This document shows positions 5,389 to 64,000 of a DNA stretch of 64,000 nt, piece after piece. A program made the translations under genes and the position numbers. Location: contig JAHFKK010000001.1 of the NCBI GenBank assembly GCA_023245335.1, forward strand, positions 872,019 through 936,018, given 5' to 3'. A model generated the notes under the pieces. The model was not told the origin of the DNA. It was given only the letters and a program-made list of their open reading frames with translations, and made no database searches. Source of the stretch: Candidatus Gottesmanbacteria bacterium (GTDB lineage: Bacteria; Patescibacteriota; Microgenomatia; UBA10105; UBA927). The first letter of the stretch is position 1; every line of letters starts with the position of its first letter.

Positions 5389-5913
5389 ATGGGTATCATT
5401 GTATTTATCGCATTCACCATACTCCAGCTAGCTTTTGCCGCATTCATCCTATTCCTCTGTCTCGCCTTTGTGACGGGCGGACCGTTTGTCCCATCCACAA
5501 ATACCGCAGTAGAGGCGATGATAAAAGCCGCGCATATACATCCCGGTATGACCGTCTATGACGTGGGGTCCGGCGACGGAAGGGTGCTCTTTGCTGCAGC
5601 CCGGGAAGGAGCCAATGCCGTCGGCATAGAGATTAACCCCTATCTTGTGTGGTATACGCGTATCCGGGCCTTCTTTTCGCCTTACAGAGGCCGTATTAGG
5701 GTCGTTTGGGGTGACCTTTGGCGGACAGACCTCAAGCGGGCCGACCTCGTGTTTGTCTACCTCATTCCCTGGCGGATGGGGGACTTCGCCGCCAAGCTGA
5801 CCAGAGAACTTCCCAAAGGCGCCGCGGTCGTCTCCAACAGCTTTATTTTCCCAAACTGGAAAGCTATACACAAGGATCCCAGGCACCATATCTACACATT
5901 TCGCGTCTCCTGA
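5389..5913 (+). CDS. Small membrane-anchored class I SAM-dependent methyltransferase.
   Basis: N-terminal TM helix followed by the SAM-binding motif VYDVGSGDGRVL and an acidic loop (GIEINP) typical of Rossmann-fold methyltransferases. Confidence 0.55.
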   Translation: MGIIVFIAFTILQLAFAAFILFLCLAFVTGGPFVPSTNTAVEAMIKAAHIHPGMTVYDVGSGDGRVLFAAAREGANAVGIEINPYLVWYTRIRAFFSPYRGRIRVVWGDLWRTDLKRADLVFVYLIPWRMGDFAAKLTRELPKGAAVVSNSFIFPNWKAIHKDPRHHIYTFRVS

Positions 5914-54974: not shown

Positions 54975-56111
54975 TCACGACGGATGTATATTCCGTTTGG
55001 CAATTTGTTCAGTAATATAGGAGTTTGCTTTTTCTAACCGATACGGCAACGTTCTTGGATCTTTCCATACATCCGTAACCATCTTATGCACCTGCGTACG
55101 AGCATAATCATCAGGGGTCATAACATCTTGAAGAATATCCGGCATATTCAATGCAGCGTTCACATAGCCCAGCTCGACCCCTGCCTGAAATTTGTATCCG
55201 TCTGTCGAAGGGCTTTTTAATAAATCTTGTGTGATTTTGATCACTTGCTCCTGATCAACCAATGAAGGATTTTTTCGCATGCCCATGAGCAAATCATTGG
55301 TCTTTTTGTCATTAATCATTTCTTTGACGCCATTAATACCAATACCGATCGCAATAGCAACACTTGTAAGTCCCATAAGTGCCGACACAGTTTGGGTGAG
55401 CTTAGTTTCTGGAAAAATTCCATTTTTCAATTTGACTCCAGTCTCGAATCTAAAGGCCATATCGGAAAGAGAACCATGAAAAAGATATAAATTTAATAAA
55501 CCTAAACTGTTGTTAACTACATGCACTGTCATTGACTGGGCAAGACCCTTTTTTTGTGATTCTCCTGTCAAATTGGCGGCATCGATTGTTTCCTTGATTG
55601 GTTTCGCTAACCCTAAAGACCGATAAATACCTCCGGTATGTCCGAATCCAAAAAGGACGTCTGCCGTGCGTCTGGCAACATCCGGGCGTACGTCAATTCC
55701 TACGATTTTACCAACAGCTGTTACTATGGTAGGAATTGCTTTACTCCGAAAAATAAGTTCTTCTAAAACTGGCGCCCCTAAAGTACCATACCAAAGCATT
55801 TTGATATCACGCGAATCCATGCCTTTTCGTGCTCCGGCAACCGAGATACCCAAATTAGCTAGCCCAACGCTACCTAATGTTGCCAGAAACAGCTTTTTTG
55901 ACGACGAGTGCTCCCAGGTCTTAGCCAACCACGAACCTTTGATCTCTCGTTTATTATCGTCGATGGTTTTTGTCGACCAGTCAACGAATTTTTGTGTTTC
56001 GGCAACGGCATCAGCAACAAATTGTTGTCGCTCTGTCGGGCTCAGTTGCTCCAAGTGTTTTTGCGAAATTCCGATTTTATGATCCTGACGTATCCCGGAT
56101 GTTGTTTCCAT
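54975..56111 (-). CDS. CPBP-family (CAAX protease/Abi-like) intramembrane metalloprotease homolog, unusually long.
   Basis: Motif 1 LEELIFR, motif 2 FGFGH and motif 3 HVVNN, in the correct order and spacing. 378 aa, with N- and C-terminal extensions. Confidence 0.5.
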   Translation of the reverse strand: METTSGIRQDHKIGISQKHLEQLSPTERQQFVADAVAETQKFVDWSTKTIDDNKREIKGSWLAKTWEHSSSKKLFLATLGSVGLANLGISVAGARKGMDSRDIKMLWYGTLGAPVLEELIFRSKAIPTIVTAVGKIVGIDVRPDVARRTADVLFGFGHTGGIYRSLGLAKPIKETIDAANLTGESQKKGLAQSMTVHVVNNSLGLLNLYLFHGSLSDMAFRFETGVKLKNGIFPETKLTQTVSALMGLTSVAIAIGIGINGVKEMINDKKTNDLLMGMRKNPSLVDQEQVIKITQDLLKSPSTDGYKFQAGVELGYVNAALNMPDILQDVMTPDDYARTQVHKMVTDVWKDPRTLPYRLEKANSYITEQIAKRNIHPS

Positions 56112-56116
56112 ATGGG

Positions 56117-57118
56117 CTATATGTGATGAAACTTATCGTGGATTTGTTTCAACTGCGGGTTCGTGACATGGGTATAAATCTGCGTCGTCGAGACATTTTT
56201 GTGACCCAAGAGTTCTTGGATCGCCCGCAGATCTGCGCCATTTCCCAAGAGATCTGTCGCAAACGTGTGCCGCAACCCGTGCGGCGTAATTTTGATCGGG
56301 AGCTTCGCCTTTTTGGCGTACTTTTCGACGAGGCGCTGGACGCTTCGCGCCGTCAGGCGGATGGATTCTCCGGTCTTGTCATCCTCATCGGGTTTTTTAC
56401 CGGAATAGCGGATAAAAATCGGTTTCAAATCATCCTCACGGCTTCCGATATATCGCTTCAGCCAATCGGCTGACGCGTCGGATAAAAATACGACGCGTAG
56501 TCTGCGGCCTTTCCCGATGACGCCAAACTCCCGGCGATCGAGATTTATCCCGTCACGGTTAAGCGCCACGAGTTCCGAAACCCGCAGTCCGGTAGAAAAA
56601 AGCACTTCCAGAATTGCTTTATCTCGTAACCCCTCGGGCGTAGAAATTTCCGGCATGTTCAGGAGCCGGTCCACTTGCTCCCGATCCAAAAATTTTATCG
56701 AGTGACTTTCCGCTTTCGGCAAATCAATTTTGTCCGGCGTAATCGAGGGGATATCGCGCTTGGCGAGATATTTGAGAAAACTCCGAAGCGCTATCAGATG
56801 ATAATTTTGCGTGACTCGCTTGAGCGTCATGCCGTGCGGATCAGAAAAACGCGCTAAATATAACCGGTATTGCCGGATGCTTTCAGACGTAATGTCATTC
56901 ACCTTCGCTGAAGCTACGGTGGACAAGGAAGTTTTTCCGCCAGAGGCGGATCGGCCTCCGGCCGACACATCAGCTCCGGCAGGGGAGGGGATTTGGCCTG
57001 TCAGAAAGGCCAAAAACCTAGTCAGATAATGTTTGTAATTGCGAATCGTCAATTGCGAAACATTTCGTTCAATTTCGAGATATTCCAAAAATTCTTTCAG
57101 AAGCTTTTCGAGATCCAT
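56117..57118 (-). CDS. Tyrosine recombinase (XerC/XerD/integrase family) with a low-complexity insertion in the N-terminal domain.
   Basis: N-terminal SAM-like core-binding domain (LEYLEIERNVSQLTIRNYKHYL). C-terminal HGLRHTFATDLL...LLGHKNVSTTQIYTHV (R..HxxR..Y). Insertion PSPAGADVSAGGRSASGGKTS. Confidence 0.8.
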   Translation of the reverse strand: MDLEKLLKEFLEYLEIERNVSQLTIRNYKHYLTRFLAFLTGQIPSPAGADVSAGGRSASGGKTSLSTVASAKVNDITSESIRQYRLYLARFSDPHGMTLKRVTQNYHLIALRSFLKYLAKRDIPSITPDKIDLPKAESHSIKFLDREQVDRLLNMPEISTPEGLRDKAILEVLFSTGLRVSELVALNRDGINLDRREFGVIGKGRRLRVVFLSDASADWLKRYIGSREDDLKPIFIRYSGKKPDEDDKTGESIRLTARSVQRLVEKYAKKAKLPIKITPHGLRHTFATDLLGNGADLRAIQELLGHKNVSTTQIYTHVTNPQLKQIHDKFHHI

Positions 57119-57150
57119 AATGATACAGTAACGTCTACACAATCAATAAT

Positions 57151-57891
57151 GTGCGACATTATATGATTTGTCAATATGGTACAATGTGTATCATGACGCT
57201 ATTTCAAAGGACACAACTTGATCTGATGCGTCAAATGGAGCTTACGCTCGCCTCGGATTCAAACACTTCTACGATCGTACCGTTTCAGGCTGATTACGCC
57301 ACAGACAACCAGATGTGTTTGAGCGTCAACGCCTTCTTATCTCGTGCAATTGGATTGTCCATACAAACCAAACTAATCGACCCGTTACGGCAAATCGATC
57401 CTACCCAATACTATTACTCAAACGGCTCTCTACATATTACGTTTCACAGCGTCCGAATCATCCATAACCCGCCATCATATACGGACTTGGATATCAAAAA
57501 CTCCAAGCAGTTACTAGCGAAATTCGTCCCGCCGGAACGACCGTTTCCGTTTGTCCTACAGGGCGTTCTATCCATGCCGACAAGCGTTTCGCTCATAGCG
57601 CTTGTGACTCCGGAATATGATCAATTTATACGGCGCCTTCGGCATGAATTTATTTCATCCGGTATCCCTGATGACAAAAAATATTTCACTGACAAAATGG
57701 TTTTTGCCAATACAACGATTTGCCGGTATACCCATAAACCGTCACAAGAATTTTTGGAAAAGGTTGCGGAGTTAAAAAATTTGTTTATCGGAGAGTACAC
57801 CGCAGAAAAAGTCTGTCTGGTAGAGACCAATGCAGGGGCATACCCATCAAAAACGACCGTTTTGGCTGAATATCGGTTCAGCCAAATTTAG
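57151..57891 (+). CDS. Hypothetical protein, divergent from the recombinase gene.
   Basis: 246-aa ORF. A single HxT-like motif (LHITFHS). No confident family assignment. Confidence 0.3.
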   Translation: MRHYMICQYGTMCIMTLFQRTQLDLMRQMELTLASDSNTSTIVPFQADYATDNQMCLSVNAFLSRAIGLSIQTKLIDPLRQIDPTQYYYSNGSLHITFHSVRIIHNPPSYTDLDIKNSKQLLAKFVPPERPFPFVLQGVLSMPTSVSLIALVTPEYDQFIRRLRHEFISSGIPDDKKYFTDKMVFANTTICRYTHKPSQEFLEKVAELKNLFIGEYTAEKVCLVETNAGAYPSKTTVLAEYRFSQI

Positions 57892-58409
57892 CCTCAAATT
57901 TGAGCTCCTGTAGTGACCTACAAGGCCTTCGTTTCCACAAAGACGTACATGCGATCGTCTTATCCAACGCACAAAATGAGTTTTGGCCCGTTATGACAAA
58001 ATAAAGGTCAATTGTCAAAAAATCATAGACAGCTAAAACTAGGTGTCGGAGAGATCCTATATATGGAGGCAAATAAATAGGAGAGCTATAGAAAACAAAT
58101 GAAGAACAATGTGTAAACAAATGCGCATATTTATGATGAAAGTATCGTATGGCAAAAGCAGCGGTTTACAGCACACCTCGTGCATGACGTCGCAAAAGTA
58201 TTATTGTGCGACATAGTATATCATTTATTCCCCGGGCGGGGGTAAATCGCTTAAAGACCTGAAACCTCCCAATAAATAATGGCAAGGCATGTTATTCGGG
58301 GAGACGGAAGCCCTTTACTTCGTGAGAGAACCCTTGCTTGAGGCCTTTGACTGCATGAACTGGTTCTCCCGCCGATTGTGCACACAAATGACCACAGTTA
58401 TGTAAGCCT

Positions 58410-58960
58410 CAAAGAGCGTCATTCGGGTTATTTATGACGTCGCTATTTAGAGCATCAATATGCGCTAAACGACTGGTTTCGAGGCCAGAACTGCTCCACT
58501 CTACGCGATGTCCTATATGGCACATTTATGAGTTTAGCGCATTATTACGTGCTATAGTTACATTATCAAGGCTACCTATTCGTCCTGTCAAACGAGCGTC
58601 ATGTAGTATATGTGTCATTTTGGCGCTTTAATACGCTCTATATCAATATATTTGAGGCTATTCTGACAATATCTTTTATTTAAGGTGTATATGCATAGAT
58701 AGAGCGTAATAACAGCCTGTATATGTTATTTTAGCCTTACATAGACATACTCATACGAGCTTCTGCGCTCATGGGGAATGGTAATTAGCGTTCACCAGGC
58801 GTGGCTGCCAGTCATTATTTCTTTTCGGTTATATTTAGCCCATTAATACGCGCTAACCAGGTGTTTTCAAGGCTGATTCTCATCTATCTTCGACGTGATA
58901 TATGAGTATTTAGAGCGTAATAACAATCTAAACAACCATTTTATCGCACAACTTGTGTAC
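58410..58960. repeat. Array of degenerate iteron-like repeats of about 80-90 bp in a 1.3 kb noncoding region.
   Basis: Units share AAAgAGCGTCAT...TATTTAGAGCatcAATAtGCGCTAAA...TTTCGAGGC. The 19-mer TATTTAGAGCGTAATAACA occurs identically at about 58699 and 58907. Confidence 0.5.
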
Positions 58961-59091
58961 TCAAGGGAGCGGAAGGAGTGCGGTCCAGGCTCAATAGTAT
59001 GGTTGTATGTGGTATTACCCCTACCCTGGAACAGACGTTTCATGAAGCTAAATGAGGCTGTGAAAATAGTTTAGCCAAACCGTGAAATAAA

Positions 59092-59100
59092 TTATCCACA
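59092..59100 (+). promoter_or_regulatory. Perfect DnaA-box consensus TTATCCACA.
   Basis: Single exact match. A weaker TTATCCAAC lies at about 57960. AT-rich sequence lies around 58000-58130. Confidence 0.3.
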
Positions 59101-59192
59101 TTGTGTCCTATAATTCTATAGGCCTATGACTTAACTATATCAAACTATATCTACCATAAACACCCATACTATACTTCCCTCTTCCCCAGTCC

Positions 59193-60032
59193 TTATATGG
59201 CTGTATACCAGTCCGCCGTAAGCATCAGAATCATGAATACGATCGCAACGACCGCAAAAAATTCCCAAACGGTGCGTTTATAAAGCCGGTCAGATAGATA
59301 CTGTTGGGCCATCCCTACCAGCCCATAAAAACAAGTTGCCAAAAAAAGCGCGAATAATGTCGTCCTGACGGGCCAAAATGAAAATATCCAGGCTATTTCA
59401 CACAAAACAACAGTTATGACGGCGGCCAAATCTCTTACCCGCTTCCCTATCATGGGTTCAAGGTCCATCGCCCATAATATTTGCAGTGTTAAAGGATACG
59501 TCATGACGCCTATGAGAATCCCATTAAAAACTGCGTTTAATCTGTATGCGACAATCGTCTGCGCCAAAAGATAATACGTAATGAGGGTAAGTAAAAATCC
59601 TACGGAATGTGCAGCCCGAAGAAGCGCAATAGTCCTGGCCGCCGCGACATTATAGATATTTTCCGTAAGAAGAAGTGCATACATTCCAACAGCGTAAAGC
59701 ACCGCAACCGGCAGCCTCGTCAACCATCGGGTCGGCAATAAGAAATAAAACACGGCTACAGCCATGGTAAAAAGCGTCGGTAACGTCAAAAGGGTCACCC
59801 ATTCCGTGCCACGTAAGTCCTCCCGCAGACCAAATGCACACAATAAGTACGCGAGGAGAGATAAGACGGCAACCATGGGATACCGCCAATCCAACGGCAC
59901 CAATTGCGTAAACATGAGGACGGCGGTCAAAATCCCCGTAATCACGACAAACTGTTGACGTTTGGTGAAGGCGTTTGCGCGATCCCATCGTTTAAACCAC
60001 TTTGTAACTTTCGAGATAATTGCGATTTTCAT
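59193..60032 (-). CDS. Polytopic membrane protein, hypothetical.
   Basis: 279 aa with about 8 TM helices. Confidence 0.4.
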   Translation of the reverse strand: MKIAIISKVTKWFKRWDRANAFTKRQQFVVITGILTAVLMFTQLVPLDWRYPMVAVLSLLAYLLCAFGLREDLRGTEWVTLLTLPTLFTMAVAVFYFLLPTRWLTRLPVAVLYAVGMYALLLTENIYNVAAARTIALLRAAHSVGFLLTLITYYLLAQTIVAYRLNAVFNGILIGVMTYPLTLQILWAMDLEPMIGKRVRDLAAVITVVLCEIAWIFSFWPVRTTLFALFLATCFYGLVGMAQQYLSDRLYKRTVWEFFAVVAIVFMILMLTADWYTAI

Positions 60033-60047
60033 ATGACTCCTACTCCC

Positions 60048-60767
60048 CTATTCGAGATTACTGAACACTTGTTGTACATCTTCCAATATTTCTAATTCAG
60101 AAATTAAGGTTTCATTTTTTTGCCGGACATCTTCAGTTGGAGTAATGTGGGCGGTGGGTTTCATAATAAGTTCCCAATTATCGACCATCCACCCTGCGGT
60201 CATGAGGTTTTCCCGAACGGACATGAGCGTATGTGCTGACGTATAGACCTCAAACATATCCGTGCGTTCAATGATGTCATCCGCTCCGCTAGAAACCGCC
60301 GCATCCAAAATCGCATCGTACGACTTACCGTTTTTTTCCACAACCAGGACCCCCGCCCGCGCAAACTGAAAACTCACGGCCCCAGGTGATGCCAAGGATC
60401 CGCCGCCCCGGTCAAACTGATGTTTGATATTTGCCGATGTCCGCTGATGATTATCCGTCGCGGCTTCCACGATGATCGCGACCCCGCCCGGTCCGTATCC
60501 TTCGTACATGACCTGCTCATAGGAAGCTCCGCCGGCCGCTGCGGCTTTTTCGATCGCGCGCTCTATGTTTTCTTTGGGCATATTGACGTCATGCGCTTTT
60601 TCGATCGCAAGTCTCAAGTGAAAATTTTTATTCGGATCAGCAATGCCCCCACCCTCGTGGACAGCAACGGTAATAGCACGCGAGGCTCTAGTAAAGGCCG
60701 CACTTTTCACAGCGTCCGTCGTCGCCTTCTGATGTTTCACTTTACTCCATTTGGAATGGCCGCTCAT
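60048..60767 (-). CDS. yebC: YebC/PmpR-family transcriptional regulatory protein.
   Basis: MSGHSKWSKVKHQKATTDAVKSAAFTRASRAITVAV is the canonical YebC N-terminus. Confidence 0.9.
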   Translation of the reverse strand: MSGHSKWSKVKHQKATTDAVKSAAFTRASRAITVAVHEGGGIADPNKNFHLRLAIEKAHDVNMPKENIERAIEKAAAAGGASYEQVMYEGYGPGGVAIIVEAATDNHQRTSANIKHQFDRGGGSLASPGAVSFQFARAGVLVVEKNGKSYDAILDAAVSSGADDIIERTDMFEVYTSAHTLMSVRENLMTAGWMVDNWELIMKPTAHITPTEDVRQKNETLISELEILEDVQQVFSNLE

Positions 60768-62698: not shown

Positions 62699-64000
62699 TC
62701 ACCTATTGTAAAGCCAGCGTTTCTTCAATTCAAGGAACGTCCCATGCTCGATAGACCTTCGAATCTCAAGAACCAACGTGTTGATGTAGTGTATGTTGTG
62801 AATGGTCGCCAATCGGTATCCTAGGAGCTCACGAACCCTGAACAGATGATGGATATACGCGCGCGAAAAATGACGGCAACAGTAACAGGCACAATGCTCA
62901 TCAATCGGCCTTGTATCCTTTTTGTACGTCGCATGGGTTATATCTATTTCGCGCTTGCCCTTTGGATGATTGGGCGCGCTGTATAGCTTCCCCATGCGCG
63001 CGAGGCGGGTGGGCTGCACGCAATCAAATGTATCAATCCCGTGTTCGATAAGTGCAAATATATCGTCTATTTCTCCCACGCCCAGTAGGTGCCGTGGTTT
63101 GGCATCGGGCAGGAAAGGACTCACCCAATCTAGTACATCTACCATTTCTTTCTTGCTCTCCCCGACCGACACACCGCCAATGGCAATGCCATCCGTATCA
63201 AGGTGACTGATAAATTGCGCTGACTCTTTACGCAAATCCTCGTAAACACTTCCCTGCACGACCCCATAGAGCGCCTGATATGGATTGTCATTGCGAGGAG
63301 TTCCCGACGCGGCAATCCCGTCATGCGCGGGCCTGCTTCGCTTCGCCCGCAATGACAGTCGCTTGTGTTCGCTAAGACTCCGTATTGCCCACCGATGCGT
63401 TCTGTTCATGGCTTTGACCGCATATTCATGCGTCGCGGGATATGGCGTACACTCATCAAACGCGATATGGATATCGCTCCCGAGCGTCCACTGATACTGC
63501 ATGGAAGACTCGGGACTGAACCGGTGCTTCGTTCCGTCCCAGTGCGAGGTAAATGTCACCCCGTCTTCGTCGATCGCGACCAGTTCTCCGATCGGTTTAT
63601 AGTCGTCGGGATATATATCGTTCTTCGCATCTTCCCGATGCGACCGGCGCTTGGCAAAACGCTCTCGATCAAGTACTGCGGATTCTGATATGGCGATATT
63701 GATAAGCTTTTTGCCTCCCAAGGAAAATACCTGGAATCCCCCGCTGTCGGTAATGATGGGACCCTGCCAATCCATGAACGTGTGCAATCCGCCGAATTTC
63801 TTGATTACGGTGAGGTCGGGCCGCAAGTACGTGTGGTACGTATTGACGAAAAATAACTGAACACCAAGTGTGCTCAATTCGTCCGGTGTCAATGACTTCA
63901 CCGCAGCTTGAGTACCCACAGGCACGAATGTTGGAGTTTTGATGATCCCATGTGGAGTGATAATTTCACCGATCCGTGCATTACTTTTTTTATCCCTCCT
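62699..64000 (-). CDS. tgt: Queuine tRNA-ribosyltransferase (tRNA-guanine transglycosylase), 5'-partial; the start lies beyond the window end.
   Basis: FVPVGTQAAVK and the zinc site CACYCCRHFSRAYIHHL. The reading frame stays open upstream of 63925 (ARIGEIITPHGIIKTPTF) to the window edge. Confidence 0.85.
   Translation of the reverse strand, partial: RRDKKSNARIGEIITPHGIIKTPTFVPVGTQAAVKSLTPDELSTLGVQLFFVNTYHTYLRPDLTVIKKFGGLHTFMDWQGPIITDSGGFQVFSLGGKKLINIAISESAVLDRERFAKRRSHREDAKNDIYPDDYKPIGELVAIDEDGVTFTSHWDGTKHRFSPESSMQYQWTLGSDIHIAFDECTPYPATHEYAVKAMNRTHRWAIRSLSEHKRLSLRAKRSRPAHDGIAASGTPRNDNPYQALYGVVQGSVYEDLRKESAQFISHLDTDGIAIGGVSVGESKKEMVDVLDWVSPFLPDAKPRHLLGVGEIDDIFALIEHGIDTFDCVQPTRLARMGKLYSAPNHPKGKREIDITHATYKKDTRPIDEHCACYCCRHFSRAYIHHLFRVRELLGYRLATIHNIHYINTLVLEIRRSIEHGTFLELKKRWLYNR

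Follow-up and report, generated by a model that had tools for sequence, protein, structure and literature searches.

The subject of this report is the longest noncoding stretch, at positions 57892–59192, in a window of a Candidatus Gottesmanbacteria genome (contig JAHFKK010000001.1); "the window" denotes the whole 64-kb stretch of DNA analysed, coordinates are positions in it, and strands are given relative to its plus strand. We propose with moderate confidence that this gap is a recombination locus working at the DNA level, which is composed of a dif-like target site of a Xer recombinase and an accessory array, and that it is not an RNA or a protein gene. The proposed target site is a 28-bp core at 58187–58214 (+), the array is a series of 24-bp dyad-symmetric sites to the right of the core, and a gene for a Xer-family tyrosine recombinase (56117–57118, −) lies on the left side. 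From these elements we infer Xer binding, recombination and dimer resolution at the locus, as well as an accessory role of the array. The analysis thus gives a concrete 28-bp candidate site, which is conserved in many uncultivated lineages and linked to a recombinase gene.

An initial annotation, made from the letters of this DNA alone, had called the gap the only long noncoding stretch in a compact window with a Xer-like tyrosine recombinase adjoining, and both statements hold: the gap is the longest by far, the next largest being about 560 bp. It had also described a divergent gene pair upstream. The recombinase gene and a hypothetical gene do form such a pair to the left of the gap, but the gap itself lies between convergent genes, i.e., a 2H-phosphoesterase-like hypothetical gene (57163–57891, +) on the left and a DUF5656 membrane-protein gene (59193–60032, −) on the right. 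The latter is followed by yebC, and these two genes (together 59193–60767) are the constant right neighbours of the locus.

For comparison we collected 18 related loci by means of the 2H-like protein, whose homologues in these loci are 44–71% identical to that of the window, so that 19 gaps including that of the window were available. The flanking gene order is kept in all 18 loci, the gap size is 0.95–1.3 kb, and an nhmmer search with the window gap gave a nearly full-length match in most of the 18 relatives (E 1e-83 to 1e-20). Because neutral DNA would not be alignable when the neighbouring proteins are only 44–71% identical, the gap is considered to be under selection. The homologues belong to uncultivated Microgenomates of the candidate phyla radiation (CPR), deposited as Gottesmanbacteria, Woesebacteria or "Patescibacteria group", and more distant homologues of the 2H-like protein (30–37% identity) are found in other gene contexts without the gap. 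There is no conserved open reading frame (ORF) in 57892–59192. In a survey of small ORFs, the 19 gaps contained 78 ORFs of at least 45 aa, none of which was kept in more than six gaps, and the similarity among them arises only because conserved DNA blocks underlie them.

The dif-like core, the adjoining recombinase and the neighbouring sites

The most conserved element of the gap, which the initial annotation did not list, is the 28-bp core ACGTCGCAAAAGTATTATTGTGCGACAT. Its layout is 11-6-11, ACGTCGCAAAA/GTATTA/TTGTGCGACAT, in which inverted arms, each containing GTCGYA, surround the 6-bp centre GTATTA; when the right arm is reverse-complemented (ATGTCGCACAA), 9 of its 11 positions are identical to those of the left arm ACGTCGCAAAA. 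In alignments of the 19 protein-anchored gaps the core is near-invariant, its centre and inner arm positions being invariant, and conservation is confined to about −2 to +28, with a sharp drop beyond about 30 bp. When the core was placed in register with the dif sequences of E. coli and B. subtilis (references from PMC3025954), 15 of the 28 positions matched, against 7.7 ± 2.3 for shuffled sequences (P ~0.002); the identities include CGCA.AA in the left inner arm and TATT.TG in the centre and right arm. Archaeal dif sites have 14–18 of 28 positions in common with the bacterial consensus (PMC2958812). The core has the architecture expected of dif, namely a length of about 28 bp, imperfect inverted arms of about 11 bp around a centre of 6–8 bp, and resemblance to known dif.

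A scan of metagenome contigs with the pattern GTCGYAAAAGTATTAWTGTRCGWC found the core on at least 120 contigs, with exactly one copy on each, as in the 64-kb window; the pattern presets the centre and the inner arm positions, and this set is uninformative on their invariance. Two positions of the core are variable, i.e., position 4 (C/T) and position 19 (G/A), which would face each other in a stem of the two arms, and their combinations (CG 50, TG 35, TA 21 and CA 18) are near the product of the marginals. Because the two positions vary independently, each arm tolerating a pyrimidine on its own, the core is better understood as two half-sites read by protein than as the stem of a hairpin. The near likeness of the two arms suggests one recombinase rather than a XerC/XerD pair. 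In all loci with enough left flank, xer is found to the left of the core with its 5' end towards the core, at a distance of 220–3400 bp, and the right side of the core is DUF5656-yebC in nearly all loci with enough flank. Since xer on the left and DUF5656-yebC on the right recur across the oriented loci, we take yebC, DUF5656, site, xer, read on the minus strand, to be the ancestral order. The xer gene and the core can be regarded as a single linked module, like those of the single-recombinase systems XerS/difSL and XerH/difH.

The recombinase has 333 aa and carries the Pfam Phage_integrase and SAM-like N-terminal domains, and this adjoining gene provides the Xer-family recombinase expected of a dif system. 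Among NCBIfam models it scored 240 bits on XerC, 235 on XerD and 218.6 on archaeal XerA (E 1e-65 to 1e-71), all below the equivalog cut-offs, though only narrowly for XerA (cut-off 220), and its scores are far lower on XerS (129 bits) and on integron integrase models. The best solved relatives are E. coli XerD (1a0p) and Pyrococcus XerA (4a8e). In an alignment to the XerD-FtsK-gamma fusion, LRQLHQQ of XerD corresponds to LKQIHDK in the window recombinase, so that the FtsK-gamma contact RQ-QQ reads KQ-DK and is only partly kept. The lysine matches the key position K (XKX) of XerA, where XerD has R (PMC2958812). An integron was also considered and rejected: the integrase models require 265 and 435 bits, of which the protein reached 108 and 60, no GTTRRRY boxes were recognised by eye, and the repeat modules described below are orthologously conserved and have no ORFs. 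A dif or att site for the adjacent recombinase had been among the candidates of the initial annotation, and this idea is supported in kind by the 28-bp core; the core is, however, a different element from those it had pointed out, and it does not lie at a skew shift.

On the other side of xer, a 378-aa hypothetical gene (54975–56111, −) with a weak, sub-threshold DUF7167 match stands between xer and a D-Ala-D-Ala ligase-like gene. Of the relatives checked, only L025 yielded a counterpart (44% identity); in the rest, xer is directly followed by ddl or tblastn gave no homologue.

A second, degenerate dif-like site, ACGTCTACACAATCAATAATGTGCGACAT (site 2; 57131–57159, +), is located just upstream of the xer start codon and has the ACGTC start and the TGTGCGACAT right arm in common with the core. 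Its position relative to the core is about −1040 in most Gottesman-clade loci; where the 2H-like gene is missing, it is −340 to −450. Because site 2 and the core have different centres, the two should not recombine together. The 2H-like gene occupies the interval between them. Its product gave no match in Pfam, NCBIfam or the PDB, a search of PDB sequences with a 2H-family profile was also empty, and some of its homologues carry the JGI name 2'-5' RNA ligase. A tblastn search with the window protein found the gene between xer and the core in Gottesman-type loci only. Bounded as it is by two dif-like sites of the same orientation, and not detected by tblastn in wider relatives having both sites, the gene has the appearance of a cassette that was gained between two sites of recombinase type.

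Separate half-sites also occur. The left-arm pattern A[CT]GTCG[CT][ATC]A has 39 forward and no reverse matches in the 19 gaps, and shuffled sequences give 0.9. The core itself accounts for 19 of the 39. Of the remaining 20, some precede the core by about 40 nt, a feature of five related lineages that the window lacks, and the others directly adjoin a 24-mer as GAYGTCGCAATTTAGCGC; in the window, the extra half-site ACGTCGCTA (58437–58445, +) abuts the first 24-mer.

These sites might instead belong to a regulatory region, in which Xer and/or another repressor would use the 28-mer, site 2 and the 24-mers as operators to control xer, the 2H-like gene or an unannotated transcript, with no recombination involved. 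Such an arrangement would suit the location of site 2 directly upstream of the xer start, the ATAAT-like consensus that follows the core at +24 to +28, the dyad symmetry typical of operators, and the location of the core away from a skew shift point. We nevertheless regard it as unlikely, because a 6-bp centre and inner arms that are invariant in 19 gaps are unusual for an operator spacer, because the 11-6-11 layout and the 15/28 match to dif fit a recombination site better, and because the array of the Gottesman clade lies between convergent gene ends, where there is no downstream gene to regulate.

The array of 24-bp sites and the question of an RNA gene

The array is built from a repeated 24-mer with the consensus TTTAGMGCRTTAATAYGCKCYAAA. 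With one mismatch allowed, the pattern TTTAG-N14-CTAAA has five matches in the window, four of them in the gap, against 1.5 in shuffled sequences, and two further degenerate copies start at 58619 and about 58697; the initial annotation had counted at least six related units, and the four pattern matches plus the two degenerate copies bear this out. Each module follows the plan TTCGGGTTWTTTAT, 0–14 nt, 24-mer, 7 nt, TTTYGAGGCTA, and TTCGGGTTWTTTAT is nearly invariant across 18–19 related gaps. Module 1 starts with the motif TTCGGGTTATTTAT (58422–58435, +), which has a second copy, TTCGGTTATATTT, at 58824–58836. The first 24-bp site, TTTAGAGCATCAATATGCGCTAAA (58446–58469), is followed by TTTCGAGGCC at 58476–58485; the second, TTTAGCGCATTATTACGTGCTATA (58533–58556), by ATCAAGGCTA; the third, TTTGGCGCTTTAATACGCTCTATA (58619–58642), by TTTGAGGCTA at 58650–58659; and the fifth, TTTAGCCCATTAATACGCGCTAAC (58834–58857), by TTTCAAGGCT. 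The fourth is degenerate (ATAGAGCGTAATAACA..., 58697–58741) and contains an AATAACA/TGTTATT inverted repeat and a reversed TTTTAGCCTTA motif. The sixth, TTTAGAGCGTAATAACAATCTAAA, together with the strongly conserved block TATCGCACAACTTGTGTACTCAAGGGAGCG, makes up about 70 conserved nt (58909–58975); it is assigned to the plus strand, and the other five have no strand assigned. The inverted repeat had been noted before and is indeed present, at 58708–58730. The same cannot be said of a supposed exact duplication of TATTTAGAGCGTAATAACA: the copy at 58696 has two mismatches, and what is exactly shared is the 15-mer TAGAGCGTAATAACA, at 58700 and 58911.

The first 24-mer is found 245–290 bp to the right of the core, and the spacing of 24-mers is bimodal, with sharp modes at about 77 and 86 bp. 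We tried a Rayleigh test for helical phasing and discarded it as uninformative: it called every period that we tried "significant", an effect of spacings that are bimodal and not phylogenetically independent. At least one 24-mer is present in about half of 108 distinct core-bearing loci, with 0 to 8 per locus, and the clade of the window has 3–6 of them over about 1 kb (~700–1000 bp) of accessory DNA. Because only about half of the core-bearing loci have 24-mers, the array is regarded as a clade-specific elaboration of an older core.

An important question is whether the dyad symmetry of the 24-mers reflects an RNA stem. We compared mirror positions in 92 distinct copies from 35 loci and counted Watson-Crick pairs against the expectation under independence: 43 observed and 42.3 expected for positions 6-19, 59 and 60.4 for 4-21, 61 and 63.7 for 7-18, and 28 and 38.9 for 9-16. 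The two halves vary separately (M at position 6, R at position 4), which fits a site for a protein dimer and not an RNA stem. The term iteron, which the initial annotation had used for the repeats, is therefore fair for their form, inasmuch as they are apparently protein-binding sites at the DNA level, but an iteron replicon is not supported.

A large structured noncoding RNA (ncRNA) with repeated domains was another of the early candidates, and a long conserved noncoding stretch between convergent genes is what such an RNA could look like. The evidence from several programs is against it. The proposed covariance-model search, run on the window with Rfam 15, gave no family at gathering thresholds; with E up to 10 allowed, the only matches were two to snoRNAs, both ascribed to chance. 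ARAGORN predicted neither a tRNA nor a tmRNA in the window, and a scan for promoters and terminators gave four promoter-like sites, against 4.6 expected, and no terminators. RNAalifold, applied to 18 gaps (about 1,240 columns), yielded no consensus fold, with −2.87 kcal/mol on the plus strand and −10.08 kcal/mol on the minus strand and covariation terms of +0.22 and −0.33, respectively; the MAFFT alignment is poor in variable parts of the gap, and short local hairpins could escape this program. The z-scores of local folds near the core range from −0.1 to −0.5 on both strands, and a control segment gave equal values. The comparative alignment of the 19 gaps, which had been suggested as a check, thus established that the region is conserved in relatives, and it did not reveal RNA base-pair covariation.

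Some short local hairpins seem to keep their pairing when inspected by eye. At 58322–58372, a purine-rich arm GAGAGAACC could pair with a pyrimidine-rich arm GGTTCTCCC, the two being 15–30 nt apart, and the equivalents in relatives (GAGAGTA/TACTCTC, GGAGGAGA or GAGGAGA/TCTCCTC) seemingly retain pairing as the sequence changes; a C-run/G-run hairpin 35–55 nt after the core behaves similarly, again by eye and in a poorly aligned part. The earlier suggestion of complementary segments forming long-range helices thus stands only insofar as GAGAGAACC and GGTTCTCCC seem to keep pairing, and the large RNA that they were to build is unsupported. Because the most conserved palindromes lack covariation and neither a match to an RNA family nor a compensatory structure was found, the reading as an RNA gene is largely refuted, and we consider it very improbable.

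Other parts of the gap are conserved to different degrees. Its left end (57892–57927, +) is a block conserved in the 19-sequence alignment with CTGTAGTGACCTA at 57908–57920, and 32 of 116 distinct loci have CTGTANTGACCTA, which follows the stop codon of the 2H-like gene, at a position of −280 to −300 relative to the core. Next comes a poorly conserved, A-rich spacer (57936–58184, +) with 40% A and 38% G+C; the AT-rich DNA that had been noted at 58000–58130 is real, with 33% G+C and 47% A. Tandem Repeats Finder reported two short arrays only. Near the right end, a conserved block TGTGAAAATA...CCGTGAAATAAATTATCCACA...CCTATAAT (59059–59114, +) includes the DnaA-box-like TTATCCACA at 59092–59100, and in four relatives GC-rich hairpin-like insertions are found between CCACA and CCTATA, which makes the block hard to square with a promoter of fixed spacing. 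A tandem 10-mer, AACTATATCA (59133–59151, +; 2–3 copies in relatives), is followed by a C-rich tract, CTCTCCCACTCCCC in relatives, which is conserved and lies just downstream of the DUF5656 stop codon. GC-rich palindromes, CGCCTTGCCGGCGAGGCG or CCGCCTGCC...GGCAGGCGG, are inserted at differing positions in different relatives, e.g., at 5700–5745 in L005, near the 3' end of the gap in L010 and L014, and between TTATCCACA and CCTATA in L024 and L025; this suggests a small mobile hairpin repeat or a terminator-like element.

Mobility has to be considered also for the repeats themselves. They could be remnants of small mobile elements, either Xer-exploiting or miniature, that were inserted successively, with the 2H-like gene as a cassette between dif-like sites. 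This would account for the exact placement of that gene between site 2 and the core and for its going undetected by tblastn in wider loci, for the module number of 0 to 8 among lineages, for 24-mer copies within one genome that are often more alike than orthologous copies, and for the mini-hairpins inserted at differing places. We find it improbable, however, because the modules are kept at orthologous positions, with sequence and spacing, down to about 45% identity of the neighbouring proteins, which indicates long-term selection and not decay. Site 2 is also present in loci without the 2H-like gene, and its centre is unlike that of the core. Furthermore, a scan of viral contigs for the full core site gave no match, and half-site scans of these contigs gave 3 and 14 matches, none of which has a second arm and most of which are from one phage coding sequence.

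Replication context of the locus

The initial annotation had also suggested a replication origin or the remnant of an iteron-type replicon and had proposed a search for a flip of GC skew at the region. The skew is negative throughout the window, also after genes are separated by strand, and its strand-corrected replication component is about −0.04 to the left and −0.10 to the right of the site. We extended the skew beyond the window by following the source contig through exact-protein matches, and the sign remained unchanged for a further 36 kb beyond the window end, so that no flip is found from −58 kb to +42 kb.

A chromosomal or plasmid-derived origin, with iterons, a DnaA box and an AT-rich unwinding region, would draw on the repeats, the perfect and conserved TTATCCACA, the A-rich segment and the tandem AT-rich 10-mers, and a DnaB helicase gene is found about 20 kb to the right. 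The perfect DnaA box reported at 59092 does exist, but as a single copy without a cluster. Each of the 19 gaps has one perfect TTATCCACA, and allowing up to one mismatch adds one site in total; window-wide, DnaA boxes with up to one mismatch number 14, against 14.6 by chance. There is no adjacent rep, dnaA or dnaN, and the flanking genes converge and do not diverge. Because the skew sign is constant over 100 kb, the genes converge and the DnaA box is single, an origin is excluded: neither a DnaA-box cluster nor the skew and gene divergence of oriC was observed, the reading is largely refuted, and we give it almost no probability. An iteron-type plasmid replicon was rejected as well, for there is no adjacent rep-like gene, and the repeats are dyad-symmetric and 77–86 bp apart, unlike tandem iterons of 17–22 bp. 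It follows that this long conserved gap should be annotated neither as an RNA gene nor as an origin. In 66 of 87 distinct loci, TTATCCACA lies no more than 1.5 kb from the core and on the plus strand; the conserved 9-mer near the Xer site might serve regulatory DnaA binding or be part of the site of another protein.

The same skew data weigh against the recombination locus that we favour, if it is expected to behave like ordinary bacterial dif. The interval without a sign change, −58 kb to +42 kb of the site, corresponds to 8.2% of the 1.218-Mb genome, whereas predicted bacterial dif sites lie within 1.39% (one sigma), and never more than 3%, of genome length from the skew shift (PMC3025954); the nearest possible shift here is more than 3.4% or more than 4.8% of the genome away from the core. 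Among 117 metagenome loci, the skew is about 0 to the left of the site and steps to about −0.12 to the right of it, without a clear sign change. The core is, therefore, not a canonical dif that is located at the terminus and guided by FtsK. In addition, the scans of viral contigs found no phage or other integrative element carrying the site. Genes do converge on the site across the metagenome loci, the strand-corrected replication component being negative on both sides, and we considered this as a terminus signature. It was rejected, because the window genome has its genes in the same orientation and yet shows no flip of skew, and the convergence is therefore read as shared gene order. A site at least 42 kb and at least 58 kb from any GC-skew shift calls into question the rule that bacterial dif is terminal.

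The array might also organise the chromosome or act on replication, e.g., as a barrier to forks or as a site for loading or pairing, with the Xer site adjacent by linkage only. The sites have one orientation and fixed spacing, the DnaA-box-like 9-mer is single and invariant, and all examined loci agree in the direction in which replication crosses them, as such a function would have it. Against this stand the lack of a skew shift and the fact that about half of the core-bearing lineages have no 24-mers; no consensus of Tus, RTP, ParB or MatP was recognised, and parS, Ter and matS sequences did not fit, both judged by eye and not by a formal test. We accordingly hold a chromosome-organising role to be quite improbable.

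Some neighbouring genes deserve mention. A queuine tRNA-ribosyltransferase (TGT) gene (62699–64000, −) runs past the right end of the window, and its 408-aa ORF is cut at the N terminus by the window edge, which is not a real start; the full product in L152 has 442 aa. About 33–35 kb to the right of the region (L156, 1943–4064), a homologue of the RuBisCO large subunit adjoins a gene of the IF-2B family (ribose-1,5-bisphosphate isomerase-like), with rpsF-ssb-rpsR and a dnaB helicase gene nearby; such a gene pair corresponds to the nucleoside-salvage pathway described in CPR bacteria.

A proposed mechanism and comparison with known systems

We propose that two subunits of the adjoining Xer recombinase would bind the core and exchange strands across its 6-bp centre, as at dif, and that a dimeric DNA-binding protein and further recombinase subunits would assemble the array sites into a large nucleoprotein complex. 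This complex would control the timing and topology of recombination at the core in the manner of the accessory sequences of cer and psi, so that the array would be architectural or accessory DNA of the cer/psi or lambda-intasome kind. Because accessory-driven systems need neither FtsK nor a position at the terminus, a dif-like sequence can be reconciled with a non-terminal location, and by analogy such a scheme would fit the XerA-like features of the recombinase. A broader idea, which we offer only tentatively and think rather unlikely to hold as a whole, is that CPR bacteria of the Microgenomates type use a xer-linked, non-terminal site, independent of FtsK guidance, for the resolution of chromosome dimers or for some other essential Xer reaction, and that the site obtains its selectivity for resolution from a cer/psi-like chromosomal array of about 1 kb, made up of phased dyad-symmetric sites and additional recombinase half-sites.

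Xer/dif systems are near-universal. The canonical XerCD/dif system resembles the present locus in having a 28-bp, 11-6-11 site, 15 of 28 positions of the core being identical to E. coli and B. subtilis dif; the core is present in a single copy per contig. The window core differs in its position, with no skew shift from −58 to +42 kb, and in its near-identical arms, and its recombinase has KQ-DK in place of the FtsK-gamma contact RQ-QQ of XerD. Archaeal XerA/dif is similar in other respects: the recombinase reaches 218.6 bits on the XerA model (cut-off 220) and has the key K. Archaeal dif is a highly symmetric 11-6-11 site whose recombination in vitro took place without FtsK; in Thermococcales, inverted repeats on its flanks have been proposed to be partner sites (PMC2958812). 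The host here is a bacterium, and linkage of xerA to dif is not reported in PMC2958812. That the window system is also independent of FtsK is our conjecture.

In the XerS and XerH systems, dif adjoins the xer gene (PMC5357621). XerS/difSL of streptococci and lactococci and XerH/difH of Helicobacter and Campylobacter are therefore alike to the present locus in that xer is linked to its own dif-like site, the core here being 220–3400 bp from the xer 5' end, and in that imperfect inverted arms surround a short centre. The window protein, however, resembles the XerC, XerD and XerA models more than it does XerS (129 bits) or XerH, and the centre of difSL has 11 bp against 6 bp in the window core. 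While difSL is located at the terminus and depends on FtsK, the window core is not at a skew shift point, and these two systems are without the accessory-site array of about 1 kb that the window locus has.

The accessory DNA finds closer parallels in plasmids and phages. In cer and psi, a Xer core is combined with accessory sequences bound by ArgR/PepA or ArcA/PepA, and sites of this type work away from the terminus and without FtsK through a topological filter (listed in PMC5357621). The predicted protein-binding DNA on one side of the Xer core is a likeness to them; their accessory DNA is about 180 bp, whereas about 700–1000 bp with 3–6 24-mers is found here, and they are plasmid-borne, whereas the window locus is chromosomal and no ArgR box was recognised in it. 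The lambda attP intasome is comparable in that half-sites of recombinase type and candidate sites of other proteins are arranged around one crossover core. It differs in that attP has a separate arm-type sequence, whereas the extra half-sites here are copies of the core arm; the window locus has no phage context, no integration junctions were seen, and no viral contigs carried the site.

A full-text search of a literature library found no paper linking Xer/dif to the candidate phyla radiation or Patescibacteria, and we know of no described counterpart of such an array on a chromosome. In one clade, the site is joined to a large and ordered array of predicted protein-binding sites, and, as its sequence suggests, the locus would be a xer-linked dif-like module of a known type, whose position and large accessory array are both out of the ordinary.

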